The notes under the pieces: generated by a model | The model's database searches: none | What the model saw: the letters and a program-made list of their open reading frames with translations, nothing else | Told to the model about the DNA's origin: nothing | Made by a program: the position numbers and the translations under genes | Shown: positions 2,606 to 28,497 of the stretch, piece after piece | Layout: every line of letters starts with the position of its first letter | How positions within the stretch are numbered: position 1 is the first letter of the stretch | Source of the DNA: an uncultured Candidatus Saccharibacteria bacterium | GTDB lineage: Bacteria; Patescibacteriota; JABMPQ01; JAQVVF01 | Length of the DNA: 64,000 nt | Assembly: GCA_964574655.1 (NCBI GenBank) | Contig: CAZNOH010000001.1 | Span: 73,852 to 137,851, forward strand | Reading direction: 5' to 3'

Positions 2606-3301
2606 ATGAGAGGGAAATTTTTTGGAGCAACAATGGGTTGTTTTTTTGTTGCTTTGGTAATGTTGCTGGCAATGCCAGTTTCGGCAGCTACATCCTTCGC
2701 AAATAAAAGAGTATTCTTTGTGCATCATTCTACTGGCCAAATCTATTGGGACAATGGCATGAAATCTGCATTAAAAAGCAACGGCTATTCTGGTAAGGCG
2801 CCATGGTGGGATGGCAATACAGATCCTGGTGATTTTTATTCACTTTTTACAGATCCTAGCTCTTGGGCGACATTTGGAAATGCTGATATAATTATTTTTA
2901 AATCTTGTTATCCTGCAAGCTCTATAACTTCCAAATCAATGTTGAGCCAGTACAAAACTTGGTATAAAGAATTATTTACGATTTATAAAAGCCATCCTGA
3001 TAAATTGTTTGTTCCAATGTCAACTCCGCCATTGCCAAAAGCAATGACAAATGCTAAAGAGGCGAGCAGGGCAATTGAATTTGACACTTGGTTGGCAGGC
3101 AAATATGTTACAAAATATCATGAAAATTCAGGCAGAAATAATTTATTACCATACAGATTACACAAAAAATTAATGAATAATAATGGATATTTGGCAGGAA
3201 AATATGTTGTTGATCCTAATGATGGCCATCCAAATGTGTTATCTGGAAAAAGAGTTGGAAACACTTTAGTAAATTTGCTTAATAATTATTTTGCTAATTA
3301 A
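2606..3301 (+). CDS. secreted hypothetical protein
   Basis: 231 aa; N-terminal signal peptide (...LLAMPVSAATSF); followed by stem-loop plus T-run terminator at 3325-3354. Confidence 0.55.
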   Translation: MRGKFFGATMGCFFVALVMLLAMPVSAATSFANKRVFFVHHSTGQIYWDNGMKSALKSNGYSGKAPWWDGNTDPGDFYSLFTDPSSWATFGNADIIIFKSCYPASSITSKSMLSQYKTWYKELFTIYKSHPDKLFVPMSTPPLPKAMTNAKEASRAIEFDTWLAGKYVTKYHENSGRNNLLPYRLHKKLMNNNGYLAGKYVVDPNDGHPNVLSGKRVGNTLVNLLNNYFAN

Positions 3302-7639: not shown

Positions 7640-7900
7640 TTATATTAAGGCTGTGATGGCTGTAGCAATTCCTAAAATAATACCTGGAACATTGGCAATT
7701 ATAATAGGCCAGTCTTTTTTTGTTTTGAATGTACCATATGATGTCCAGGCAATACAGTTTATTGTTGTTATGATTGGCAGAACTATTGATCCTGTTTGAC
7801 CAGAGATATTTAATCTAATTTGATCTATATACGAAAAATACATGGTAACAGCCATTAAAGAAGCAAACCATCCAATTTTATTTACAATATTTTCGTTCAT
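7640..7900 (-). CDS. SemiSWEET-like small sugar transporter (3-TM PQ-loop/MtN3 family)
   Basis: 86 aa, three TM helices; size and topology of bacterial SemiSWEETs. Confidence 0.45.
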   Translation of the reverse strand: MNENIVNKIGWFASLMAVTMYFSYIDQIRLNISGQTGSIVLPIITTINCIAWTSYGTFKTKKDWPIIIANVPGIILGIATAITALI

Positions 7901-9286: not shown

Positions 9287-9874
9287 TTATTTCGTTTTTC
9301 CTGCTAATTTCATTTTCTCGTTATAATGTGCTTCAACTTCTTTTTTTATTTCAGGCCACCTCATAATCCAATTAAGCCCATCACCAGCTGATTTTATTTC
9401 CTGGCTTTCTAAAATTTCTATACGCATGCAAAATCCAGCCTTATTTTTTTCAAGATACAAAAATTGTTTTTGCTCATCTGGCAGATTAAGCAAAAATTCA
9501 TCAGAAAAGTTTGGCCATGAATATTGCCCATCGCGAATCGGACGCAACTCTGTTCCGTTTGGCGCCTGGATATATGGCCTGCTGTGTATATTAAACCTGT
9601 ATATGCCGGATTGCCAATCTGACGTGTCAACTTCAAACCATCCTGGAAAATTTTTGCTTTCTGTCAGATTAACAGCTTCAATTCCAGAAATACGATGGCC
9701 TGGTTTATTTTTTTCAGATTCTTCTTTTACTCGCTCCTGTAATACACGCTGGTCATTGTTATCTATCGGGCCATCGGGGTTTGGTCCGATCCAAAGCTGG
9801 GCCTCGCCTAAACCCAATAATTCCTTATTGAGCAAAAACAAATTTTTGTCTTGGATTTTGATGAAGTTTTCCAT
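9287..9874 (-). CDS. hypothetical protein (cassette ORF)
   Basis: 195 aa; no recognisable domain; flanked by a perfect 23-bp inverted repeat (9267-9289 and 9881-9903). Confidence 0.5.
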   Translation of the reverse strand: MENFIKIQDKNLFLLNKELLGLGEAQLWIGPNPDGPIDNNDQRVLQERVKEESEKNKPGHRISGIEAVNLTESKNFPGWFEVDTSDWQSGIYRFNIHSRPYIQAPNGTELRPIRDGQYSWPNFSDEFLLNLPDEQKQFLYLEKNKAGFCMRIEILESQEIKSAGDGLNWIMRWPEIKKEVEAHYNEKMKLAGKTK

Positions 9875-11385: not shown

Positions 11386-11570
11386 GATGTAAATTATTTT
11401 CATTTTTCGATTTTTTTCAACTATTCAAGGGCGAATTTTGATTCCGTTTGGCGGGGGCGCAAGAGGGGAATAAAAGGGGTGAATTGCGCCCCCGCCAATC
11501 ACTTCGTTTAAAATGAAGAAGGCCAGCGGTAATTTTCGATTGCTCGAATTTCCCGCTGGCTTAGCCCTCC

Positions 11571-12035
11571 CTATTTCTCGCAAACACCGACGAGTACGCA
11601 GTGAGGACCGCAACGATCATCGTCGGCGTATTGCTTGAGGCCGCGCGTAGGACCTCCACTGATAAAGAAGCTGCTCCTCGAACCCCCAATGAAGGCCATA
11701 TACGGGGCATCATTCAGTCCCAAATTATGGTCTTTTGCAGGGGGCAAGAGAGCTTCTGCGGGGTCGCAGAGACGCACGCCAACCTCACGAAAAGCGGCTT
11801 CCACGTCCGCACGGTAGACGATCCCGTCTGCACGCTTGAACAGCTTGCCGGAGACGATGCAGAACATCACCGTCTCGACACCCTGCCGCTCGGTCGGGAA
11901 GTTGTTGTCGGTGATGTCCCTGTCTACGCCATGGTATTGACCCTCACTGGCGAGTTGGGCGATGATGTGCGAGTTCCTGTTGAGCTGGAGCACGATCTTG
12001 TTGTCCGCGATTGCTCTTTTGAGTGTTTGCGACAT
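11571..12035 (-). CDS. GC-rich xenologous hypothetical protein (154 aa)
   Basis: About 58% GC with strong GC3 bias at the 5' end; SD aaaggagag 5 nt upstream of the ATG; two GC-rich hairpins downstream (tggcgggggcgca...tgcgcccccgcca; gccagcgg...ccgctggc); no confident family. Confidence 0.5.
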   Translation of the reverse strand: MSQTLKRAIADNKIVLQLNRNSHIIAQLASEGQYHGVDRDITDNNFPTERQGVETVMFCIVSGKLFKRADGIVYRADVEAAFREVGVRLCDPAEALLPPAKDHNLGLNDAPYMAFIGGSRSSFFISGGPTRGLKQYADDDRCGPHCVLVGVCEK

Positions 12036-12104
12036 TTTCACTCTCCTTTTGTGTTTGTCTTTCCCCGCACCCGTCGCGGAGTTAGACAATTTAATCTATC
12101 ATGT

Positions 12105-12134
12105 ATATAATACTTGTAAATACTATATGTCAGT
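12105..12134 (-). promoter_or_regulatory. candidate promoter (CTGACA-18-TTATAT) reading into the cassette array
   Basis: On the minus strand, about 70 nt upstream of the GC-ORF2 start; a Pc-like position. Confidence 0.3.
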
Positions 12135-12265
12135 AAATAATGATAAAATATGCTAAAATAAAGCAAAATAATGAGATAAATTACAAAATGTAAGTAATTA
12201 TTGACACAATTTAGCTGTTGTGATAGGATAGAAAAATCTATCTTGGATATTTAGCCACCAAACCT

Positions 12266-13051
12266 ATGGAAAACTTAATCAAAGATCTCGGACTTGATGA
12301 AAACGAGGCGAATGTATATCAAGCCCTTTTGGAACTTGGGCCGTCTACTGTTAGCCAAATAACAAGAAAAGCGGGAATTACCCGAACATTCGGCTATCAA
12401 ATTTTAGAAAAGTTAAGTGTGTATGGATTTGTCAATCGTGTATCGGGGGAGGGTGCAAAAATTCGTTTTGTAGCAGAACACCCGAGACGCTTAGTGCAGT
12501 TTATCCAAAACAGAAAAAATCAATGGGAAAGACGTCTTAAAGAAGCAGAAGACAGATTACCTGATTTAGTATCTTTGTATAAACTTGCCGATAAACCTAC
12601 TATTAAATATCTGGAAGGCATAGAAGGAGTAAAGTCAATTTTCATCCAAACACTTGAGTCAAAAGAGGAAATTTTTTCTATTTTGGACATCGAGGGTTGG
12701 GATATTCCTGAATTTCAAAGTTGGGGTAGAGAATATAACCGAGAAAGAAGTGCGCGGAAAGTAAAAGAAAGAATACTTATGTATGACACGCCACAAGGTA
12801 GGGAGTGGATGGATGACTATCGGGGTTCGTTCAAATATACAAACTGTCGTTGGATAAAGCCCGAAGATTTACCAGGAATTAGAGAATTCGGTGGCGAAAT
12901 AAATGTTTATGAAAATAAAGTTGTAATGGCCTTGCTGAAAAAGCCAAACATAATGGGGGTGGTGATTGAAAGCCAAGCATTGTCAAATATTTTAAAAGGT
13001 TTGTTTGAGTTGGCGTGGAAGCAAGGTATTGAAGTCAAAAGAAAAAAATAA
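12266..13051 (+). CDS. TrmB-family transcriptional regulator
   Basis: 261 aa; N-terminal wHTH LGLDENEANVYQALLELGPSTVSQITRKAGITRTFGYQILEKL typical of TrmB; promoter TTGACA-17-TAGGAT at about 12203. Confidence 0.65.
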   Translation: MENLIKDLGLDENEANVYQALLELGPSTVSQITRKAGITRTFGYQILEKLSVYGFVNRVSGEGAKIRFVAEHPRRLVQFIQNRKNQWERRLKEAEDRLPDLVSLYKLADKPTIKYLEGIEGVKSIFIQTLESKEEIFSILDIEGWDIPEFQSWGREYNRERSARKVKERILMYDTPQGREWMDDYRGSFKYTNCRWIKPEDLPGIREFGGEINVYENKVVMALLKKPNIMGVVIESQALSNILKGLFELAWKQGIEVKRKK

Positions 13052-13057
13052 AAAATC

Positions 13058-13083
13058 GTCCCGCCCGAGTATACGGGCGGGAC
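13058..13083 (+). terminator. GC-rich hairpin gtcccgcccg-agtata-cgggcgggac
   Basis: Perfect 10-bp stem after the trmB-like stop; no T-run, so it could be a recombination or regulatory site instead. Confidence 0.35.
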
Positions 13084-13260
13084 ATCATATTTCCCCTAAT
13101 CAAATAATTATCAAAATTCGCCCCTCAATTATCAAAAAAATCGAAAAATGAAAATAATTTATTTCCGATAACTCGTTTATATCTATAATGTTTACAAATA
13201 GTATGCTAAATTTTGTATAATTGTGCTATATTATTGTTGTAAAAAGTAATTTTTTATTTA

Positions 13261-14072
13261 TGCCTAGTTTAATAGAAATTATGAAGCGGGACATGGAAAT
13301 CCTAAATTACAGCCAAAAGACAATTGATGCTTATCAACGAAATATTGCGGAATTGTATAGATTTGTAAAAAAGCCATTGAGGAATTTAGATGAGAATTCG
13401 ATAAAGGATTTTTTGAGCCAGAAACAGAAAAAAGGTTTATCAAGTCAGTCCATTGCTTTGGCGGTGAATGCGATTAATTTTCTTTATACTCGCATATACA
13501 AGGATCCTGATTATAAAAAAATGCGACATCCTAAGCGTTCTAAACGTTTGCCAGTGGTATTGTTGAAATCAGAGATTGAAAGAATTATTGAGCAGACAAA
13601 TAATAGAAAACATAAATTAATTATTGCATTGGCGTATGCTGGTGGTTTGCGTGTTAGTGAGGTTGTCAGTCTCAAGGTTCAAGATATTGATATAGATGCT
13701 TTGACATTGATAGTTCGACAGGGGAAAGGAAAAAAGGATAGATTAACAGTGCTTTCTAAAAGAATTATATCAGATTTGAGTGAAATGATAAATGGCAAGC
13801 ATAGTTTTGATTATGTTTTTGAAAGTGAACGAGGTGGCAAGTTGACTGTAACAACAGTTCAAAAAGTATTTAGCAAATGTTTAGAAAAATCAGGGGTTAA
13901 AAAACCTGTGACTTTTCATTCTTTGCGCCATAGTTTTGCAACGCACTTGTTAGAGAATGGCACTGATATTCGCTATATTCAAGAATTGCTAGGACATCAA
14001 AATATTCGAACAACGCAAATTTATACGCAAGTAACGAATCCGAGTATTAGGAAAATTGTAAGTCCGTTTTAG
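13261..14072 (+). CDS. tyrosine site-specific recombinase (XerC/XerD/IntI-like)
   Basis: C-terminal HSLRHSFATHLL...LLGHQNIRTTQIYTQV (R-H-R-Y catalytic region); RLPVVL and GKGKKDR boxes; N-terminal SAM-like core-binding domain resembling IntI/Xer; an alternative start at 13221 is possible. Confidence 0.85.
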
Positions 14073-14133
14073 AAAAGTAAAAAGTCAAAAGTAAAAAGGT
14101 AAAAGTTACAAGTAAAAATTAAAAAGTATTTTT

Positions 14134-17100
14134 ATGATAGGAAAGCCATCTGAAGAAATAAAAGAGCGGTTGGATATTGTGGATTTGATTTCAGAATATA
14201 TTCAACTAACACCTGCTGGTGTTAATAATTTTAAAGCAAGGTGTCCTTTTCATAATGAAAAAACGCCGTCTCTTTTTGTATCCAAAGATAAGCAGATTTT
14301 TAAATGTTTTGGATGTTTTCCCAAGGGTGCAATCATTAGAACGGTAGAAGGCAACAAGGCAATTGATCGATTGAAAATTGGTGATTTAGTCTTGACGCAT
14401 AAAAGTCGATATAAGCCGGTAATTAAGTTATTTAAAAGAGATTATAAGGGACTTATGGTTGATGTTATAACGCGAAAATTGAATGAAGTTGTTTCTCTGA
14501 CTTCTGATCATAAAGTTTTTGTAATAAAAACAATAAATTGTAAACAAAAAAATAGAGAATCAAGGATTTGCCAACTACGATGTACGCAGAATTGTCCGAC
14601 TAAATATTTTAAGGATTATAAAATTAAAAAAATATTAGCAGGAGAATTGAAGCAGAATGATTATTTGCTTTATCCAATCGATGAAAAAGTTGTTGATATA
14701 AAAAAAATAAATTTAAAAAAATATTTGACTAAGAAAAAACCAATTCATGGCAAGGAGATTAGAAAATTGCCTGATTACTTAACTGTTAATTCTGATTTAT
14801 TAAAGTTATTAGGCTATTGGATTGCTGAGGGCAGTAGTCATCGAGCATATATCAGATTTAGTCTTGGCAATCATGAAGAAATTTTTGCTAATGATATTGT
14901 AAAATTGCTTTTTAAAGTTTTTAAATTAAAAGCAAGTATTTATCGAAGAAAAAATACTGAAAAAACAGGCTTAGAGATAACTTGTTGCAATTCTAATTTG
15001 GCGAATATTTTTGAAAATTTGTGTGGAAAGGGTGCTTTGAATAAACATATACCATTTGAATTTGTGAATTTACTTGCTAGAAAACAAAGAATTTTGTTAG
15101 AGGCGATTCATCGAGGGGATGGTTATCAAGGGTTTGTGAATGATAGTAAAAGAAAATATAGAGCAATTACGGTAATTTCTAGAACTTTGACAGATCAGAT
15201 GAAAGAGATTTTGTTGCGTTTAAATTTAATGCCAACTTTGTTTATTGCTGATGAAAAAGTTGACAAGAAAGGGGTTCGTCATAAAAAATCTTACACTCTA
15301 AGCTGGCAGGAAAATATTTTAGGGCATTATGCTGATTTTTATAGATTTGATAAAATTAAATATTGGATTTTGCCAATAAGAAAAATTGTGAAAAGAAAAT
15401 TTTCTGGAACTGTTTATAATTTGATGGTAAAAGATGATCATTCTTATACAACAACAAATTTTACAGTTGGTAATTGTGGAGAGGGCGGCGATGTTTTTTC
15501 TTTTGTGATGAAAATGGAAGGATTGGAATTTGTTGATGCATTAAGAATTTTGGCGGTTAAAGCTGGCGTGGAATTGAAACGCGAACAGCCAGAATTTTAT
15601 TCTAAGCGAGCAAGAGTTTTAGAAATTTTAAAATTATCAGCGGAATATTATAATTTAGCATTATTAAAAAGTAAAAGCGGACAAATTGCTAGGGATTATA
15701 TTGCGACAAGGAAATTAAAATCAGAAACTGTTAGTCAATTTAAATTAGGATTTTCACCTGATGATTGGGAAATGCTGTCTAGGTTTTTAAAGTCTCGTGG
15801 ATTCAGAGATGATGAAATTTTAGCAAGTGGAATGGTTGTGCCAAAAGATTATGGCAGATATTATGATCGATTTAGATTTAGATTAATGTTTCCGATTTGG
15901 GATGGACAGAATAATGTGGTTGGATTTACGGCCAGACAATTGAGAGAAGAAAAAAATATGGGCAAGTATATTAATACTTCGCAAAGCTTGGTTTATGATA
16001 AGAGCCGAGTGATTTATGGATTGAATTTTGCTAAGTCAGATATAAGAAGAGAGGATAGGGTGGTAATAGTTGAGGGCAATATGGATGTGATTGCATCGCA
16101 TCAGGCAGGAGTTAAAAATGTTGTGGCATCTTCTGGGACGGCTTTGACTTCAATGCAAATTGATTTGATAAAAAGGTATACAAATAATGTTGTTTTTTCT
16201 TTTGATATGGATTTGGCTGGAAATATGGCAACACAGAGAGGAATTGATTTGGCATTGGAATCAGGATTGAATATTAAAGTGGCAGTACCTAAAAAAAACA
16301 ATGACGTGAAAGATCCTGATGATATTATAAAAACAGAAGGCGTTAAGGCATGGAAAGATGTAATTAATTCGGCAAAATCAATTATGGATTATTATTTTGA
16401 AAGCAATGCAGAAAAATTAAATTTAACTGAAGTTTTAGATAAAAAAATAATGGCAAAGTTTTTATTGCCAAAGATTAAAAAAATTCCGGACAAGGTTGAG
16501 CAGGCGCATTATTTGCAAAAATTGGCAGGATTGCTTTTGGTTGGTGAGGATATTTTGCGAGAAGCAATGGGAAAAACACGAGTTTTACATGGCTATGGAA
16601 GATCGGCAAGTGCAAAAGCATCCGCCTTCGCTCCAACTGTGGTTGGAGCTTCCACCTACGCAAATGCTTCGGCGGACAAGCCGGTGGACAAAGAAAGCGA
16701 AACTGAATTGTTGCAGGAGCGTCTTTTTGGCTTGATAATGTCTGATTTTGAGAACTTTAAAAAGCTAGAAAGCTTTGATTTAGGGTTATTTAATGATCAA
16801 ATAAGTTCACTTTACAAAAGAATAAAAGAATATTATAATGATAACAAATCATTTGAGTTCAACGTCTTTAGTTCTGAATTAGAAAAGGATTCAGTTGTTT
16901 TGTCTTTATTTGCCAAGGAGCTAGTTTTGGGGATTGAAAAGGAGCAAAGTCAGCGAGAGAAAGGTGAAATTTTTGAAATCAAAAAAGAGGTAGATAGATG
17001 CCTGAACAGATTGACAGAAAATGATTTAAAGAAAAGATTAATGGATATTGAGGCGCAAATGCGCAATGCAGAGGTCAGCAAAAATGTAGAGAAGGTTACT

Positions 17101-21949: not shown

Positions 21950-24388
21950 ATGCAAAATATAGGTTTAACTTCAGAAGAAGTTTTAAAAATTCAAGAAAAA
22001 AGCGGTCAAAATGTTTTACCTTCAGAAAAGAAATTTACTTGGTTTTCTATTTTGGTCAATCAATTCAAGAGTCCAATCATCTACGTTTATTTGGCGGTTA
22101 TTGCGATATCTTTGTTTTTGAAAGAATACATTGATATTTTATTGTTAGGCGCAGTAGTTATTTTGGATGTTGCGATGGGTTTTTTTCAAGAATACAAGGC
22201 ACAAAAAACTTTAGAAGAATTAAAAAAAATCTTGAAGCCAAGAGCTGTTGTATTTCGTGATGGAAAGAATCAAGAAATAAGCTCTTCTGATCTTGTGCCG
22301 GAAGATATTGTTGTTTTAAATTCTGGAGATAAGATACCAGCTGATGGGTTTTTAGTTGAAGGAATAAATTTGTTAGTCAATGAGGCAATATTGACTGGCG
22401 AGGAGGAAGCAGTTGAGAAAACTGTAGATTCCAAAAGACGAAAACTTTTTATGGGTACAACTGTTATCTATGGTCGAGGTTTGATGAAAATAGAAAAAAT
22501 TGGCAAAGAAACCGAGATTGGTAAAATTGGAAAAAGTTTAGTAACAATTGAGGATACAAAAACGCCATTGCAGAAAAAGCTGGAAAAGTTTTCCAAAAGT
22601 ATACTTTTTATAGTTTTGGCTATTTGTGGAATAATTTTTTTGTTTGGCGTTTTGAATCATCAGGATATTTGGCAGATGTTGCGAATTTCAATTATTTTAT
22701 CAATTGCGGCAATTCCAACTGGTTTGCCAGTTGTAATAACTGTTATCCTGGCTATAGGCATGAGACGGATTTTGAAGAAAAAGGGATTAGTGAAAAATTT
22801 GTTATCAATAGAAACATTAGGATCAACTTCAGTTATTTGTACTGATAAGACTGGCACTTTAACAGCAGGAAACATGATGGTGGCAAAGACTTGGTTTATG
22901 GATGAACAAAAAGCGAACTTGGCAATGATTTTGGATAATAACCAGAGAAGCAATTTAGAAATTGCTTTGTGGAATTACTTGAAAGATGAAAAAGATCTTA
23001 ATCCGCAAGAAATTTTCAATAAGAATAAAAGATTATACGAAGAGCCTTTTGATAGCGAGAAAAAATACAGTTTGACGGTTAATGATGTTAATGGCAAGGA
23101 AATGGCTTTGTTAATGGGAGCGCCAGAACTTGTTTTGTCTTTTTGTGAATTAACTGATGAGGAAACAAAAAATATTTTAAGCAAGATTGATGAATTTGCA
23201 GAGAGCGGTTTAAGAATTTTGGGAATAGCAGGAAAGGAAGATGGCGATTTGAAAAGAACTAATGATTATAAATGGCTAGGATTAATTGGCGTGTCTGATC
23301 CGATCAGACCTGAAGTAAAAGGCGTAATTAAGAAAGCCCAAGAAGCAGGCATAAAAGTAAAAATTGTGACTGGCGATTTTCGAAAAACTGCCGAGAGAGT
23401 GGCGATGAATTTAGGCTTTGAAATTCATGACGGCAATGTTTTGGAAGGCAAGGATTTGGAAAAAATGTCGGAAACAGAATTAAAAGAAAAAATTGAAAAA
23501 ATTGTGTTGTTTTCTAGAGTGACGCCACATCAGAAATTAAAAATCGTTAAGGCTTTGCAAGATAATGGCGAGGTTGTGGCAATGACAGGCGATGGCGTGA
23601 ATGACGCACCGGCTTTGAAGAAAGCTGATATTGGCGTGGCGGTTGGATCAGCAACCGAAGTTGCAAAAGAGGCGGCTGATTTGATTTTACTGGATAATAA
23701 TTTTAAAACTATTGTTGCTGCTTGTGAAGAAGGAAGATTGATCTTTTCGAACATGAAAAAAGTGATTGGTTATTGTTTGTCTAATTCTTTTGTGGAAATT
23801 GTTTTGATTTTTGGGGCAATGCTTTTAGGATTGCCAGCGCCTTTGTTGATTGTGCAAATTCTTTTTGTGCACTTAATTTGTGATGGTCCGCCAGATATAA
23901 TTTTGAGCTTTGAGCTAAAAGAAAAAGGTTTGATGTTAGAAGTTCCAAAGAAATTAAAGTCAGAACAGATTTTGAATAGATGGATGAAGTTTTTGATTTT
24001 TACAATAAGTTTGGCTGTTGGTGGTTTTGTCTTAGGATTGTTCTGGTATTTTAATAACAAAACTGGCGATATTAATTTGGCGAGGACAATTGCTTTTGCG
24101 ACGATTGCGGCAGTTGATTTGATTTATATTTTTTCTTATAAAGATTTGCGCAATTCCATTTTTAGCATGAAGAACTTTTTTGCTAACAAATGGCTGTTTT
24201 GGGGAGTAGGCTATGGTTTTGTTTTGTTGTTGTTGGCAATTTATGTGCCTTATTTAAATAAAGCATTGCAAGTTGTGCCTTTGAGAGCGCGGGATTGGGT
24301 GTTAGTTATTGGCGTTGGATTTTTGGCGATGGTTTGGGTAGAGATTGTGAAGTGGGTAAGTAATCGTAAACGAGTTAAAAGTTCATAA
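21950..24388 (+). CDS. cation-transporting P-type ATPase (P2-type, Ca2+/Mg2+-like)
   Basis: 812 aa; ICTDKTGTLT phosphorylation motif; TGDGVNDAPALKKADIGVAVG hinge; 8-10 TM helices. Confidence 0.85.
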   Translation: MQNIGLTSEEVLKIQEKSGQNVLPSEKKFTWFSILVNQFKSPIIYVYLAVIAISLFLKEYIDILLLGAVVILDVAMGFFQEYKAQKTLEELKKILKPRAVVFRDGKNQEISSSDLVPEDIVVLNSGDKIPADGFLVEGINLLVNEAILTGEEEAVEKTVDSKRRKLFMGTTVIYGRGLMKIEKIGKETEIGKIGKSLVTIEDTKTPLQKKLEKFSKSILFIVLAICGIIFLFGVLNHQDIWQMLRISIILSIAAIPTGLPVVITVILAIGMRRILKKKGLVKNLLSIETLGSTSVICTDKTGTLTAGNMMVAKTWFMDEQKANLAMILDNNQRSNLEIALWNYLKDEKDLNPQEIFNKNKRLYEEPFDSEKKYSLTVNDVNGKEMALLMGAPELVLSFCELTDEETKNILSKIDEFAESGLRILGIAGKEDGDLKRTNDYKWLGLIGVSDPIRPEVKGVIKKAQEAGIKVKIVTGDFRKTAERVAMNLGFEIHDGNVLEGKDLEKMSETELKEKIEKIVLFSRVTPHQKLKIVKALQDNGEVVAMTGDGVNDAPALKKADIGVAVGSATEVAKEAADLILLDNNFKTIVAACEEGRLIFSNMKKVIGYCLSNSFVEIVLIFGAMLLGLPAPLLIVQILFVHLICDGPPDIILSFELKEKGLMLEVPKKLKSEQILNRWMKFLIFTISLAVGGFVLGLFWYFNNKTGDINLARTIAFATIAAVDLIYIFSYKDLRNSIFSMKNFFANKWLFWGVGYGFVLLLLAIYVPYLNKALQVVPLRARDWVLVIGVGFLAMVWVEIVKWVSNRKRVKSS

Positions 24389-24412
24389 AGTTTTTAAAGT
24401 TGTAAAGTGTTA

Positions 24413-24445
24413 TTGACTTTTTGGTTTATATTAAGGTAAAATATC
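24413..24445 (+). promoter_or_regulatory. sigma70-like promoter TTGACT-18-TAAAAT
   Basis: Canonical hexamers upstream of SD aaaggaggag and the ATG at 24494. Confidence 0.4.
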
Positions 24446-24493
24446 TAGATAATTGTTTTTGCTAGGTTCTTTTCAAAAAAAGGAGGAGACACA

Positions 24494-24931
24494 ATGTTGT
24501 ACGCGAGTGAATTAAAGAAAGATGATGTTGTGTTTGTTGTCAGAGATATTGTATTGTCTGATCGTTTATGTATTGTTCGTGGTACGAGAGCAAAAGTGAT
24601 TTGTGTTGATGATTTTCGAGCAGATTTTGAAATCGTTTCGAGTAATGATGTGGTGTTGGGTGGAACCATATTTTCACTTTATGATGCATTAGGAAGGCAT
24701 GCGAATTGTAATGAATCTGTAGCGAGTGTTGTTCTTGTTTTTCGTAAAGATGGACTCGGACCTGGTTTGGATTATGAAATTTCTGAAGGTAATGAGCCGT
24801 ATCCAATAGTTCCTGTAGATAGATTTGTGACTGTTTTTGGACCGCCAGGCATTTGGGATTCTGCTGACTGCGGTGTTGATGCTCTTACTTCTTTTGGTAG
24901 GCATGTTATTGAGTCTGAAACTAGAAGTTAG
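24494..24931 (+). CDS. hypothetical protein
   Basis: 145 aa; strong SD; no recognisable domain. Confidence 0.45.
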   Translation: MLYASELKKDDVVFVVRDIVLSDRLCIVRGTRAKVICVDDFRADFEIVSSNDVVLGGTIFSLYDALGRHANCNESVASVVLVFRKDGLGPGLDYEISEGNEPYPIVPVDRFVTVFGPPGIWDSADCGVDALTSFGRHVIESETRS

Positions 24932-24975
24932 TTCATTTGTGTATTGCCTAGACTTTTTTGTCTGGGTTTTTTTTA

Positions 24976-25022
24976 TTGACAAGTATTATTTATTATTATA
25001 ATATATCAATATATATTGATAT
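24976..25022 (+). promoter_or_regulatory. duplicated arsR-type promoter plus 20-bp palindromic operator (ATATCAATATATATTGATAT)
   Basis: About 90% identical over ~85 bp to the arsR promoter region at 27149-27235; TTGACA-17-TAATAT followed by a perfect palindrome. Confidence 0.6.
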
Positions 25023-25092
25023 GAAAAAATGCAATTGTGAAAATAAGAAGAAAAAAGGTCGCGAGGAGGTCCAACCTCCAGCGGGAGGTTAG
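25021..25092 (+). pseudogene. truncated duplicate of the arsR 5' end (MKKCNCENKKKKG...) fused to a REP sequence
   Basis: First 12 codons match the arsR at 27194; the reading frame runs into the REP hairpins. Confidence 0.5.
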
Positions 25093-25117
25093 ACCTCCAG
25101 TTTAGACCTCCAGTTTA
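25061..25117. repeat. REP-like hairpin cluster (ggaggtccaacctcc / ggaggttagacctcc)
   Basis: Two or three tandem short hairpins; the same 30-mer gcgaggaggtccaacctccagcgggaggtt recurs at 25802. Confidence 0.65.
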
Positions 25118-25140
25118 GGTTTTTTTATTTTTAATAATAA

Positions 25141-25779
25141 ATGCTAAGAAAAGTTCCATTAGAAATTGAACATTATTATCATATATGTAATCGTGGTGTT
25201 GAAAAGATGGAGATTTTTAGAAATAATTTTGATTATTTTAGATTTTTGAGATCGATGAGAGAATTCAATGTTGAGAAAGCGATTGGGAGTTTACTTGAAT
25301 TAGAGATAAGAAGAAGAAATAATCTTGAAGTAAAAGCTTCCGGCCTGGTTGATATTATTTGTTATAGCTTGGTTTATAATCATGAACATATGATTTTGAA
25401 GCAATTGCAGGAGAAGGGTATTTCAAAATTTATGCATAAATTAGAGACGGGATATGCAATGTATTTTAATAATAAATATAAGCGGTCTGGATCTCTTTTT
25501 CAAGGGAAATTTAAGTCTATTCATATTACTAGTGAAACACAGTTGTGTTGGTTAAGCGCATATGTCAATTGTAATGTCGAAGTTCATAAAATAGCCAGTG
25601 CTGAAGGTTGGATGTGGTCGAGTTATCTTGATTATATTGGCAAGAGAAATGGGACTTTGTGCAAGAAAGATATCGTATTGGCTAATTTTCAGAATGTTGA
25701 AGAATATGGGCAATATTGTAAAGAGGTAATAAAAGAGGCGCAAGAAACTAAAAGAGCAGAGAAAGAGGATGATTTTTGA
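25141..25779 (+). CDS. REP-associated tyrosine transposase (RAYT, IS200/Y1 HUH family, COG1943-like)
   Basis: YHICNRGVEKMEIF N-terminal motif, HUH motif YNHEHMIL, GSLFQGKFKS and catalytic-Tyr region WMWSSYLDY; flanked by REP hairpins. Confidence 0.8.
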   Translation: MLRKVPLEIEHYYHICNRGVEKMEIFRNNFDYFRFLRSMREFNVEKAIGSLLELEIRRRNNLEVKASGLVDIICYSLVYNHEHMILKQLQEKGISKFMHKLETGYAMYFNNKYKRSGSLFQGKFKSIHITSETQLCWLSAYVNCNVEVHKIASAEGWMWSSYLDYIGKRNGTLCKKDIVLANFQNVEEYGQYCKEVIKEAQETKRAEKEDDF

Positions 25780-25801
25780 TAAAAAATTGCTAGGAGGAGT
25801 T

Positions 25802-25850
25802 GCGAGGAGGTCCAACCTCCAGCGGGAGGTTGGACCTCCAAGAAGTAAAA
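25802..25850. repeat. REP-like hairpin cluster (second copy)
   Basis: gcgaggaggtccaacctccagcgggaggttggacctcc, in direct orientation to the copy at 25061. Confidence 0.65.
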
Positions 25851-25921
25851 CCTCCAAGAAGTAAAAAATTTATAAAGTAAAAAAATCACCCCGTAATTTT
25901 GAGGTGATTTTTATTTTAGAA

Positions 25922-27016
25922 TTATCTTACAGTTAGTTTTATTTTCGGACTTTTCTTTTTATTATTAATAGTTTTTGCTTTGTAGTAGAATTTGCCTTTT
26001 TCAATTGCTTTGAATTTGTAGTCATAATAACCATTTTTCTTTTTTGTTTTTACTTGGGCTAAGAATGTAAATTCACTAGTGCCTTTTTTCTTATAGTAAA
26101 TATTAATTGCTGTGCCTTTTTTGCCTTTGGCTAACCAGCCGTAAAGTTTGGCGGTTTTATTTTTCTTGATTTTATTTTCGACAAAGGCAGCGCTTAATTT
26201 TTCTCTTTCTTGGGCCATAATTGTTTTACTGATTGTTGATGTAGCACTGGTATTGGTGTCGCCGGCTGTGAAAGTCAGATCAATATCAAAAATTACGCCG
26301 TTATCAGCAGTTACGGTTTTATTGATTGTGGATTGTTGGCCATCAATAAACAAAGCCATGTCAGCTGGAGTAACGGTCTTGCCAGACATAGTTGACATTA
26401 AGGTTAGCATTGTGCCAGGCATGTAAATTGTGTAGTAGCCTTTTAATCCGGCTGGGCCATTTAAGGTTAAACCAAAGCCCATTTGCTCTCTGGAAGTTGG
26501 AGGGCTGATTTGCCAATCAGTGATATTGGTGGAGACATAGCCGCCGGCCATGGAAGCAGGAGGTCCGGAAGTTTGAGGATTTTGCGGGGTTGGATCTTCG
26601 CCTGGAGCAATAAAGACAAAAGCTGATTCATTTGCTAGTTGGTTGTTGTCAGGAATAATAAATTGGTCGCCAATCCAGACAATTGTTGCTTGATGAGTCG
26701 TGGTATTGTAAGTGTAGCTTTGGATGAGCCCGCCGCTAATTAGTAGCATTGGAGAATAGAGTAGTTCTGTATCTGTGCCACTGACTGTAAAAATGCCAGT
26801 GTAGGTTGTGCCAGGAGCGTCATAACCAATGCCAAAAGTGACTTCTGTGCCACCTCTTGATGGTGTTGATTGGCGCGTGACTGGCGCTGCTGAGCCGTCT
26901 GAAAGCGTGATGGGAGCAGTGTCGTAGTCGACACTGTAAGCATCAGCTAATGTTGGGAGAAAGAATAGAATTCCTGCTCCAACAATAAAGAGGCTCAAGA
27001 CTAAGAGTCTTTTCAT
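25922..27016 (-). CDS. secreted Thr/Gly-rich surface protein with Lys-rich C-terminal tail
   Basis: Signal peptide ...FFLPTLADA; low-complexity T/G-rich central region; KKKGxxxYKxK C-terminal tail. Confidence 0.5.
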   Translation of the reverse strand: MKRLLVLSLFIVGAGILFFLPTLADAYSVDYDTAPITLSDGSAAPVTRQSTPSRGGTEVTFGIGYDAPGTTYTGIFTVSGTDTELLYSPMLLISGGLIQSYTYNTTTHQATIVWIGDQFIIPDNNQLANESAFVFIAPGEDPTPQNPQTSGPPASMAGGYVSTNITDWQISPPTSREQMGFGLTLNGPAGLKGYYTIYMPGTMLTLMSTMSGKTVTPADMALFIDGQQSTINKTVTADNGVIFDIDLTFTAGDTNTSATSTISKTIMAQEREKLSAAFVENKIKKNKTAKLYGWLAKGKKGTAINIYYKKKGTSEFTFLAQVKTKKKNGYYDYKFKAIEKGKFYYKAKTINNKKKSPKIKLTVR

Positions 27017-27148
27017 GTTTTTGTGTTAATTATTTATAATACGAATTTTACGAATGGCTTTGCCCGCGAATATCACGAATAAAATTTGTAAATTTTAATA
27101 TTTATATTATAGCATATTTTGTCAAGCAGGGTTGTGAATAACTTTTAT

Positions 27149-27195
27149 TTGACAAAGACTTGTTATTATTATAATATATCAATATATATTGATAT
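27149..27195 (+). promoter_or_regulatory. arsR promoter (TTGACA-17-TAATAT) with 20-bp palindromic operator overlapping the start codon
   Basis: Perfect palindrome ATATCAATATATATTGATAT (27176-27195) spans the ATG; typical autoregulatory ArsR/SmtB site. Confidence 0.6.
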
Positions 27196-27493
27196 GAAAA
27201 AGTGCAACTGTAAAAATAAGAGGAAAACTGGTCTATGTTGTCATGGGCGTTTTTTGGCGATCAGCGATCAAAATAGGTTGAGGATTTTGGAATTGTTAAG
27301 CGAAAAAGAGCTTTGTGTTTGTGAAATTTATGAAAAATTAAATTTAGCGCAGAATTTAGTTTCTCATCATTTAAAAGTATTGAGTGACAGTGGATTAGTT
27401 TCTTTTAGAAAGGTTGGAAAGAATGTTTATTATAAATTAAATAAAAAAGCTGTTGATGATTTGAACAAATTATTAGAATCTTTAAATCGATAG
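27194..27493 (+). CDS. ArsR/SmtB-family metal-responsive repressor
   Basis: 100 aa; wHTH ELCVCEIYEKLNLAQNLVSHHLKVLSDSGLV; N-terminal Cys cluster CNCKNKRKTGLCCHG; heads a znu-type uptake cluster. Confidence 0.75.
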   Translation: MKKCNCKNKRKTGLCCHGRFLAISDQNRLRILELLSEKELCVCEIYEKLNLAQNLVSHHLKVLSDSGLVSFRKVGKNVYYKLNKKAVDDLNKLLESLNR

Positions 27494-27600
27494 GTCGTTG
27501 TTAAATTTGGTTTCTAGGTAGAAATAATTTTGTGGAATTATATATTGTTTCATTGTTCAATTGTTCAATTGTTGAATTGTTAAATTTTAGTCAAATTATT

Positions 27601-28497
27601 ATGAGAAAAAAAACTGCTTTAATTTTGTTTTTGTTTTTGGTTTTTGTGGTAGTAGCGGGGACTGGTTGTAAGACAAAAAAGTTGGAGAATAATAAAATAA
27701 AAGTGGCGGCGACAATTTTTCCGCTTTTTGATATTATTAAAAATATTGCTGGAGATAAGATTAACGTAATCCAAATCTTACCAGCTGGTGCTAGTCCACA
27801 CACTTTTGAATTAACAACTGCAAAAGGAAAAGAACTACAAAATGCTTCTGATATTTTTATGATTGGCTACGGAATTGATAACTGGGCAAGTTCTGTTAAA
27901 GAGGCGATTGGTGACGTAAATGTTGTTACGGTTGACAAAAATATTAATTTAAAAACTGCCAAAGGCGATGAGGGGCAAGCGCAGTATGGGAATAAAGATC
28001 CTCATTATTGGCTATCTTTAGATAATGCCAAAGAAATATCAAAGACAATAGAACAAGAGCTTGAGAGAATTGATCCAAATAATTCAAAATATTATCAAGA
28101 TAATCTGAATAATTATCTTCAAAAACTTGATGTTTCTAAAAATAAAATTAATAAAGATCTTAAAGACGTAAAATCAAGAAAATTAGTGACTTTTCACGAT
28201 GCTTGGGAATATTTTGCAGATGAATTTAATTTAGATATTGTCGCGACATTTGAGCCATTTCCAGGAACTGAACCAACGCCTAAATATTTGCGAGATTTGA
28301 GCAATACGGTCAGAAATGAAAATGTTAAAGCCATTTTTTCAGAGCCGGAATTTTCAAATGAAACGATCAAGCCTTTTGTGAATGATGCTGGTTTGCAACT
28401 ATATATTTTGGATGCAGAAGGAAATTATTATGGAAATAGTTATATTGAAAATATGGAAGGAAATGCTAAGATTATTAAAGAAGCGTTGAGCCAATGA
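27601..28497 (+). CDS. znuA: metal ABC transporter substrate-binding lipoprotein (ZnuA/TroA family)
   Basis: Lipoprotein signal ...AGTGC; DPHYWLS motif; cluster-9 SBP fold. Confidence 0.75.
   Translation: MRKKTALILFLFLVFVVVAGTGCKTKKLENNKIKVAATIFPLFDIIKNIAGDKINVIQILPAGASPHTFELTTAKGKELQNASDIFMIGYGIDNWASSVKEAIGDVNVVTVDKNINLKTAKGDEGQAQYGNKDPHYWLSLDNAKEISKTIEQELERIDPNNSKYYQDNLNNYLQKLDVSKNKINKDLKDVKSRKLVTFHDAWEYFADEFNLDIVATFEPFPGTEPTPKYLRDLSNTVRNENVKAIFSEPEFSNETIKPFVNDAGLQLYILDAEGNYYGNSYIENMEGNAKIIKEALSQ

Follow-up and report, generated by a model that had tools for sequence, protein, structure and literature searches.

How does a second, truncated copy of a metalloregulator promoter come to lie directly against a hairpin-flanked, transposase-like gene? 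This question is raised by a locus in a 64,000-nt stretch of DNA from an uncultured Candidatus Saccharibacteria bacterium (contig CAZNOH010000001.1, positions 73,852 to 137,851), hereafter the window, which makes up about 10% of a 654-kb genome and to which the copy counts of the gene and its palindromes refer. At this locus, a gene resembling the REP-associated tyrosine transposases (RAYT; REP, repetitive extragenic palindrome) is bracketed by two copies of one palindrome, and is preceded by the promoter, the operator and the first codons of an arsR gene (the stump), of which an intact, resident copy is present further downstream. The history that I favour, and to which I give an even chance, is a recombination of two diverged arsR loci that had its breakpoint at the hairpin and was followed by gene conversion. 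The stump would then be the remnant of a second arsR locus, within a lineage-specific insertion and at a recombination joint that a palindrome marks.

The arsR stump and the insertion that carries it

The two arsR 5' copies (Table 1) are spaced 2173 bp apart and align over 91 nt with 86% ungapped identity (BLAST: 85 nt, 88%, E 4e-23). An earlier, sequence-only reading of this DNA had described a duplicated arsR promoter, operator and 12 codons, about 90% identical to an intact copy 2.1 kb away; the duplication, the 20-bp operator and the distance are borne out here, with an identity of 86-88% and, counting the Met, 13 codons. Both copies carry the perfect palindrome ATATCAATATATATTGATAT, which overlaps the -10 box and the ATG, and which is invariant upstream of arsR in the related loci L126, L129, L131 and L133. 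The intact gene is an ArsR/SmtB metalloregulator (Pfam HTH_5, 4.7e-17; NCBIfam HTH_metalloreg NF033788, 93 bits), with the palindrome as its predicted autoregulatory operator. It is possible, as had been suggested, that the extra operator titrates the ArsR repressor.

With respect to their relatives, the two copies form a mosaic. They share a 39-nt core without a single difference, and next to the operator this core contains 13 nt of spacer and -10 sequence that are in a derived state common to both copies (13/13 identical, vs. 8-10/13 matches in the relatives). The flanks of the core are diverged, and leftward of it the similarity falls abruptly, to about 50% mismatch. In the 38-nt coding part, the stump matches the relatives at 31-36/38 positions, and the resident arsR matches them at 27-32/38, the stump being 4 positions closer each time; its N-terminal peptide MKKCNCENKKKKG is identical to that of P0122, and the resident ArsR carries K7, R10 and T12. 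This is the opposite of what a recent duplicate of the resident arsR should show, and is rather what one would expect of a diverged second arsR 5' end after a short exchange with the resident promoter. The junction between the stump and the hairpin repeat falls at 25060|25061, where the hairpin repeat begins, and the frame of the stump continues into the left hairpin until a TAG whose last base is 25092. The end of the stump coincides with the outer edge of the left hairpin, from which I infer that this hairpin was the breakpoint.

The syntenic loci of relatives, gathered via homologs of ArsR (77-92% identity) and of open reading frame (ORF) 364 (78-83%), place the stump within a larger insertion. 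In L131/L132 and L133-L136 the gene order is ATPase - terminator - ORF364(-) - arsR - Zn-ribbon - ArsP - (2TM) - ORF385(-), followed in L131 by znuA - cdd - znuC; the contigs of L132-L136 end at ORF385. L129 shows ORF364(-) - arsR - Zn-ribbon - ArsP, the 1.8-kb fragment L137 shows ORF364(-) - arsR - ..., L126-L128 show ATPase - ORF163 - arsR - Zn-ribbon - ArsP - ORF387(-) - znuA, and L130 shows x - arsR - znuA. The stop codon of the ATPase is located 20-70 nt from a conserved terminator in the relatives, and because these have the ATPase directly against ORF364(-)-arsR, the window carries an insertion of 1.48 kb. In blastn comparisons with L131 and L133, the collinearity ends at 24366 in the ATPase and restarts at 25870-25880 with the terminator and ORF364; L137 also breaks and resumes. 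The right edge of the insertion is the end of the stutter of the right hairpin (a repetition, after the hairpin, of the end of its 3' arm and a few next bases), and the homology to the relatives restarts there. The syntenic sequence of the relatives, about 47 kb, contains no RAYT homolog, no GC-rich palindrome or REP and no second operator; the cassette is absent from this region in four related lineages, and the insertion is specific to the lineage of the window. Exact-protein look-ups for same-species variants without the insertion matched only Logan unitigs of the same strain, and the Logan assemblies of two further sequencing runs, in which this strain is present, contain the same sequence.

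Besides the stump and the cassette, the insertion holds ORF145, whose terminator at 24946-24967 is followed by a T run. ORF145 has no Pfam or NCBIfam match, and no homologs in the window or the fetched loci save for same-strain Logan contigs. The sequence-only reading had proposed that the element mobilised or copied host regulatory DNA; the locus does not point in this direction, as the stump is located within a 1.48-kb insertion beside an orphan gene, and its coding part is nearer to the relatives than is that of the resident arsR. ORF364 was suspected as cargo of the insertion because of its GC content of 0.41-0.45 in an AT-rich window (GC 0.33). This is ruled out by orthologs (78-83% amino acid identity) at the same site, divergent from arsR, in L129, L131 and L133-L137, and by a similar GC content in other genes of the window. 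An ancient tandem duplication of arsR-ZnRibbon-ArsP-ORF364 as common ancestor of all these arrangements is ruled out as well, as ORF364 and ORF385 are 41% identical vs. 86% for the arsR 5' copies.

Table 1. Positions of the features at the RAYT-like locus, in window coordinates.
Feature	Position	Strand	Details
Lineage-specific insertion	24389-25865	.	1.48 kb: ORF145, arsR stump and hairpin-flanked RAYT-like cassette
ORF145	24494-24931	+	orphan gene; strong Shine-Dalgarno AAAGGAGGAG, own promoter-like site, own terminator
arsR stump (copy 1)	24970-25060	+	-35 TTGACA 24976-24981, -10 24997-25004, operator 25003-25022, ATG 25021, 13 codons
Identical 39-nt core	24990-25028 = 27163-27201	+	operator plus 13 nt of spacer/-10 that differ in every relative
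Left REP-like element	25058-25119	+	hairpin 25065-25098, 15-bp arms, one G->A mismatch; stutter of 3' arm (AGTTTAGACCTCC, AGTTTAGG)
RAYT-like Y1 HUH gene	25141-25779	+	212 aa; H81-E-H83, Y141, GSLFQG, WSSY
Right REP-like element	25799-25865	+	perfect hairpin 25806-25839; stutter ACCTCCAAGAAGTAAA x2 at 25834-25865
Cassette palindrome, sequence form			GGAGGTNNNACCTCC
Native bidirectional terminator	25881-25912	.	common to ATPase and ORF364 in relatives
ORF364, secreted hypothetical protein	25922-27016	-	native, outside the insertion
Resident arsR promoter, operator and 5' end (copy 2)	27143-27233	+	operator 27176-27195
Intact ArsR/SmtB-family metalloregulator	27194-27493	+	99 aa, ELCVCE motif, Cys-rich N-terminus, P0121; directly upstream of znuA

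Downstream of the intact gene, window 27494-27693 is without the Zn-ribbon - ArsP permease - (2TM) - ORF385 block of four related lineages (L131 reverse complement 11511-14672), and no ZnRibbon or ArsP remnants are found elsewhere in the window. The arsR gene directly precedes znuA-cdd-znuC, as in L130, with no palindrome at the arsR-znuA junction. At 9380-9838 (-), the window carries a 44%-identical homolog of ORF163, which in L126 sits between the ATPase and arsR. An ORF-like stretch at 11571-12035 (-) has a GC content of 0.56 vs. 0.33, and a GC-rich hairpin with a 10-bp stem is located at 13058-13083; this is possibly an RNA gene region.

The RAYT-like gene and its hairpins

The motifs NHEHMIL (containing H81-E-H83), GSLFQGKFKS, SAYVNCNVEVH and WSSY can be read in the ORF of the cassette, in agreement with the HUH, GxLFQGKFKS and WSSY hallmarks from which the sequence-only reading had assigned it to the RAYTs, and H81, H83 and Y141 are invariant across an alignment of 31 homologs. 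Enzymes of this Y1 HUH kind bind palindromes that are folded in single-stranded DNA, and cleave and religate the DNA at the foot of these structures. The AlphaFold (AF2) model of the protein (pLDDT 90.4) has as its best Foldseek match the E. coli TnpA-REP with its REP hairpin (4er8_A, E 2.9e-6, TM-score 0.55/0.70), and the TnpA proteins of ISDra2 and IS608 rank after it. Pfam Y1_Tnp is barely passed (23.7 bits, cut-off 23), the NCBIfam RAYT equivalog NF047646 REP_Tyr_transpos is missed (19.8 bits, cut-off 80), and a profile built from the 31 homologs has zero matches among PDB sequences at E<=0.01. Judged from the modelled fold, the assignment to a Y1 HUH protein of the RAYT kind is supported. 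In a search of 5.8 billion sequences, the nearest protein besides the strain's own is 59% identical; the family comprises 1,535 clusters (50% identity) at E<=1e-30, and every homolog is from the Patescibacteria.

The direct repeats that bracket the ORF (25058-25099 and 25799-25840) are 42 nt long and 95% identical. They had been read as direct copies with tandem short hairpins; the direct copies stand, and the hairpins are in fact a single one, as each repeat consists of two inverted 15-mers, GGAGGTCCAACCTCC-AGCG-GGAGGTT[A/G]GACCTCC, that form one 15-bp stem with an AGCG loop. As single-stranded DNA, the left hairpin folds at -16.5 kcal/mol (z -5.7) and the right one at -19.3 kcal/mol, with z about -6. 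A role as intrinsic terminator is ruled out, as no T run is found within 2 nt and the terminator scan lists none there. The stutters, at 25086-25119 and 25834-25865, each repeat the 3' arm of their hairpin. Elsewhere, I observed stutters in L053, L062, L072, L114, L139 and L016, with an incidence of 6/115 flank hairpins vs. about 0.4% by chance, and they could mark a cleavage or joining site.

Does this make the cassette a REPtron, as the sequence-only reading had called it? With the REPtron or TnpA-REP of the gamma-proteobacteria (E. coli YafM, PDB 4ER8; Nunvar 2010, PMC2817692; Ton-Hoang 2012, PMC3333891; Corneloup 2021, PMC8266576) it shares the Y1 HUH fold with HuH and Tyr motifs, a gene present once in the region with a copy of one and the same palindrome on either side, and palindromes arranged as an inverted doublet (REP/iREP, REPIN-like). 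However, the 5' flank of the hairpin is GCGA in both copies, so that the cassette is without a GTAG or GT[AG]G foot, and there are no dispersed REPs in the window. There, the gene is present in one copy, the 15-mer is absent at up to 3 mismatches beyond the two flanks (0.26 chance matches expected), and no other GC-rich palindrome families are found. The sequence similarity is also very low (19.8 vs. 80 bits; no PDB sequence match), and the gene has a lineage-specific presence here, in contrast to the descriptions of RAYTs as vertically inherited genes that do not move. The HuH motif reads H-E-H in the window protein and H-Y-H in the consensus of its family. In the sense of a dispersed REP population, the label is not upheld, as only the two flanks carry copies within these 64 kb. 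I regard the cassette as a RAYT-like variant rather than a shown REPtron, because of the lack of a further hairpin in 64 kb, the lack of a GTAG foot and a score far below the NCBI RAYT model; its status as REPtron is unproven. The prediction from the model would be that it works like a REPtron, being structurally closest to TnpA-REP, although it scores below the curated model and its hairpins have no GTAG foot.

In a survey of Y1 transposases in complete genomes (Quentin et al. 2018, PMC6006769), which makes no mention of Patescibacteria, the TnpA-Y1 subclass 2.8, found in Cyanobacteria, has HYH in the HuH motif, REPs with 5' GT[AG]G and, in some members, a REP inserted within the gene itself. 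The hairpins that this survey describes for class 3 and subclass 2.6 are atypical; they have no GTAG and could be recognised only by eye. Compared by description, the Patescibacteria family is similar to subclass 2.8 in its consensus NHYH and in an internal hairpin in 62/76 ORFs. Within the library searched, the literature yielded no description of REP/RAYT in Patescibacteria or the candidate phyla radiation (CPR).

Palindromes in the Patescibacteria family

I surveyed 80 metagenomic loci of RAYT homologs (L046-L125). Perfect-stem hairpins of shared sequence occur on both sides of the gene in 28/70 homolog loci, vs. 1/211 control ORFs of the same loci; flanking cognate palindromes are a family-wide trait, and the rule in this family. 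They are located at -12 to -45 before the ATG and 0 to 25 nt after the stop, and the upstream hairpin commonly ends 12-15 nt ahead of the ATG, followed by a TAnnAT box. The pattern TTGNNN-17-TANNNT right before the ATG is present in 19/75 family loci vs. 8/223 controls. Judging from this placement and this promoter pattern, the palindrome seems to double as the promoter of the RAYT gene. In sequence the palindromes are lineage-specific, with a common outline (C)ACTTGG...CCAAGT(G), and the GTAG foot known from classical REPs (PMC8266576) is present in none of them. The window cassette matches the family anatomy except for two details, as its upstream hairpin is 42 nt away from the ATG and no promoter-like site is located in between.

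A scan of genome contigs with GGAGGTNNNACCTCCNNNNGGAGGTNNNACCTCC found the motif in 41 loci of other Patescibacteria (L003-L043). The GGAGGTnnnACCTCC-N4-GGAGGTnnnACCTCC doublets in these 41 loci come from many Patescibacteria lineages and show compensatory changes at three middle stem positions across lineages. As matches occur on up to 7 contigs of one genome, and a RAYT homolog is nearby in only 2/41 loci (39/41 are without an adjacent gene), palindromes of this class are dispersed in other Patescibacteria. Moreover, 30 of the 41 doublets are located within stop-free frames of at least 150 codons, and are hence in-frame intragenic palindromes. In L016, one doublet (2070-2112) lies within a tRNA-synthetase-like frame of about 1000 codons and another (3246-3270) within the RAYT gene of the locus itself. 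Rickettsia palindromic elements (RPE) are likewise in-frame palindromes inside genes, of 100-150 bp, and no cognate transposase is known for them. The likeness concerns the GGAGGTnnnACCTCC doublets in open frames (30/41) and the stump, which is in-frame into the left hairpin; the difference is that no intact gene of the window carries the palindrome.

Three further observations concern the homologs. First, a perfect GC-containing hairpin is present inside 62/76 complete RAYT homologs vs. 22/129 controls, with 53 hairpins at codons 50-79 and 20 at codons 140-169, and in 52/65 loci it has 11 nt or more in common with the palindrome at the flanks; the window gene belongs to the few family members without one. 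Second, perfect DnaA boxes (TTATCCACA) cluster by RAYT cassettes, as 12 of the 29 boxes in 508 kb are located at most 150 nt from gene ends, which represent 4.4% of the sequence (L111, L083, L016, L124, L110 and L138:~2098-2108); none is near the window cassette. Third, direct host duplications of 66-200 nt, 80-94% identical and often of the 3' end of a gene, bracket several other family cassettes (L073:1339-1432/2313-2406; L082:1257-1322/2059-2124; L110:953-1018/1709-1774, with L112; L063:5740-5939/6700-6899 and 7646-7897; L059:2014-2211/2971-3168). These resemble the situation of the arsR stump, and the L063 repeat is a three-copy dockerin-like gene end. As a general insertion signature, long host duplications are not significantly enriched (9/65 loci vs. 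3/59 controls).

Proposed histories of the stump and their meaning

In the favoured history, a second or foreign arsR locus, in an 'ORFx-terminator-arsR' arrangement as in L126, would have been joined to the cassette at the hairpin, either through a nick of the RAYT at the palindrome foot, or through recombination between two REP copies, one of which had previously inserted in arsR. The latter route is supported by the intragenic in-frame doublets elsewhere (30/41) and by the in-frame passage of the stump into the left hairpin. The remainder of the second arsR would have been lost in the joining event, and gene conversion, or heteroduplex repair in the same recombination, would then have made the 39-nt tract identical to that of the resident arsR promoter. 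A conversion tract fits better than selection, because the spacer bases are unconserved between species yet identical here, with a sharp leftward transition. As a result, the RAYT-like gene may have acquired a new promoter: the consensus promoter TTGACA-17-TAATAT, overlapping the ArsR operator, points at this gene from 118 nt away, no terminator is predicted between 25004 and 25141, and the gene is without the hairpin-embedded promoter typical of its family. Transcription would probably start from the stump promoter and be repressed by ArsR, and such a promoter capture is plausible from the arrangement of these sites.

Several points weigh against this history. The comparisons between stump, resident gene and relatives are based on no more than 38 coding nucleotides and 13 of the spacer, so that their statistics are weak. 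The common derived 13-mer also fits a local duplication, if the N-terminus of copy 2 then evolved fast. The cassette is present in no relative, the donor and the state before the recombination are unobserved, and no homologs link ORF145 to any donor. The host duplications at L073, L082, L110 and L059/L063 hint at a more general insertion-linked mechanism (9/65 vs. 3/59). Finally, a leader from the stump promoter would cross a stable hairpin (RNA fold -42 kcal/mol, z -4.8).

The first alternative, which I consider unlikely, is that the RAYT, or replication slippage at its hairpin, placed a duplicate of about 91 bp from the promoter and 5' end of the resident arsR beside the element, for example through template switching or through a one-ended or aberrant transfer of a strand, and that the copies then diverged except for the selected promoter and operator. 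HUH enzymes are able to capture flanking DNA, as is established for IS91/ISCR and Helitrons, the 13-nt spacer/-10 is common to both copies and found in no relative, and selection could preserve an operator that is invariant across species. However, local copying does not account for a coding part that is nearer to all relatives by 4/38 positions, with a peptide identical to that of P0122, nor for an identical but unconserved spacer with a sharp leftward transition, and it leaves ORF145 in the same insertion unexplained.

It is also distinctly unlikely, to my judgement, that the cassette represents a recently transposed insertion sequence (IS) of a minimal, autonomous IS200-like form (hairpin-tnpA-hairpin), and not a domesticated RAYT accompanied by a population of REPs. 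With IS200/IS605 elements (IS608, ISDra2) it shares the Y1 HUH fold and subterminal hairpins on both sides, in direct orientation; the fold also matches the TnpA of IS608 and ISDra2, the Pfam family is named 'Transposase IS200 like', and the lineage-specific presence and the lack of dispersed hairpins in 64 kb would fit. In contrast, the left and right ends of IS200/IS605 are unlike each other and bound a multi-copy mobile unit with a TnpA of about 130-150 aa, whereas the cassette has the same palindrome at both ends, as in REPtrons, no second copy in the window, and a protein of 212 aa with RAYT-type YxNxN and WSS regions and TnpA-REP as best fold match. A recent spread as an IS is not indicated, since the nearest non-self protein among 5.8 billion is only 59% identical. 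Hairpins of this class are scattered over the genomes of other Patescibacteria, with several per genome and no adjacent gene at 39/41 loci.

Rather improbable is a Campbell-type integration, in which a circle (13 arsR codons-REP-RAYT-REP-terminator-ORF364-arsR promoter), excised from a related genome, was integrated into an ATPase-ORF145-arsR-znuA recipient through one homologous crossover; this would have taken place in the arsR promoter, and have duplicated it. This one step would also account for the absent ZnRibbon-ArsP-ORF385, and it predicts direct repeats on both sides of the inserted block that are identical at the crossover core and diverged around it, as observed; the coding part of the stump resembles L129, whose arsR is likewise divergent from an ORF364 homolog, arsR and znuA are adjacent in L130, and Y1 transposases produce circular single-stranded DNA intermediates (PMC6006769, PMC8266576). 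However, the closest relatives L131 and L133 have ORF364 and the shared terminator beside the ATPase, so that a simple 1.48-kb insertion is more parsimonious; moreover, no genome with ATPase-ORF145-arsR-znuA was found, and RAYTs are not known to produce 2.2-kb circles with a host gene.

An assembly artefact, a mis-join at the AT-rich palindromic promoter, is most improbable: although the Logan unitigs L001 and L044 break within the identical 39-nt core, so that short-k graphs alone cannot link the flanks, the copies differ at 13/91 positions and have distinct flanks, where artefactual duplications are identical, and the same unitigs, with the stump-hairpin and the ORF364-promoter junction each inside a single one, recur in the Logan assemblies of the two further sequencing runs.

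What is known of RAYT/REP systems is almost all from Proteobacteria, and the spread of REPs is still unsolved. A wider reading, which I hold to be rather doubtful in its entirety, is that a distinct type of REP/RAYT system is present across the Patescibacteria phylum, defined by four features jointly and with a metal-inducible rewiring at this locus. Its palindromes may be short and perfect, without GTAG foot, and conserved across candidate phyla with compensatory stem changes; they may insert in-frame into coding genes, and also into the RAYT gene, at a fixed loop; they may double as RAYT promoter; and they may be portable recombination sites that shuffle gene neighbourhoods between lineages. 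If this is true, the RAYT at this locus would have been rewired to an ArsR-repressed promoter, and mobilisation of palindromes would be inducible by metal stress.

As a single locus, the window carries modest weight, with no extra REP copies and a history inferred from short sequences; the main value is in the family-level features and in a promoter capture that can be tested. If the system works, it would represent a minimal, sequence-simple REP/RAYT in tiny genomes, with perfect stems of 6-15 bp and no GTAG foot, whose palindromes are tolerated within genes and within the ORF of the enzyme itself. The locus offers a natural case of a palindrome at a recombination breakpoint and of an enzyme gene behind a repressor-controlled promoter, which makes it possible to test whether RAYT expression is inducible, and whether REPs drive changes in gene order.

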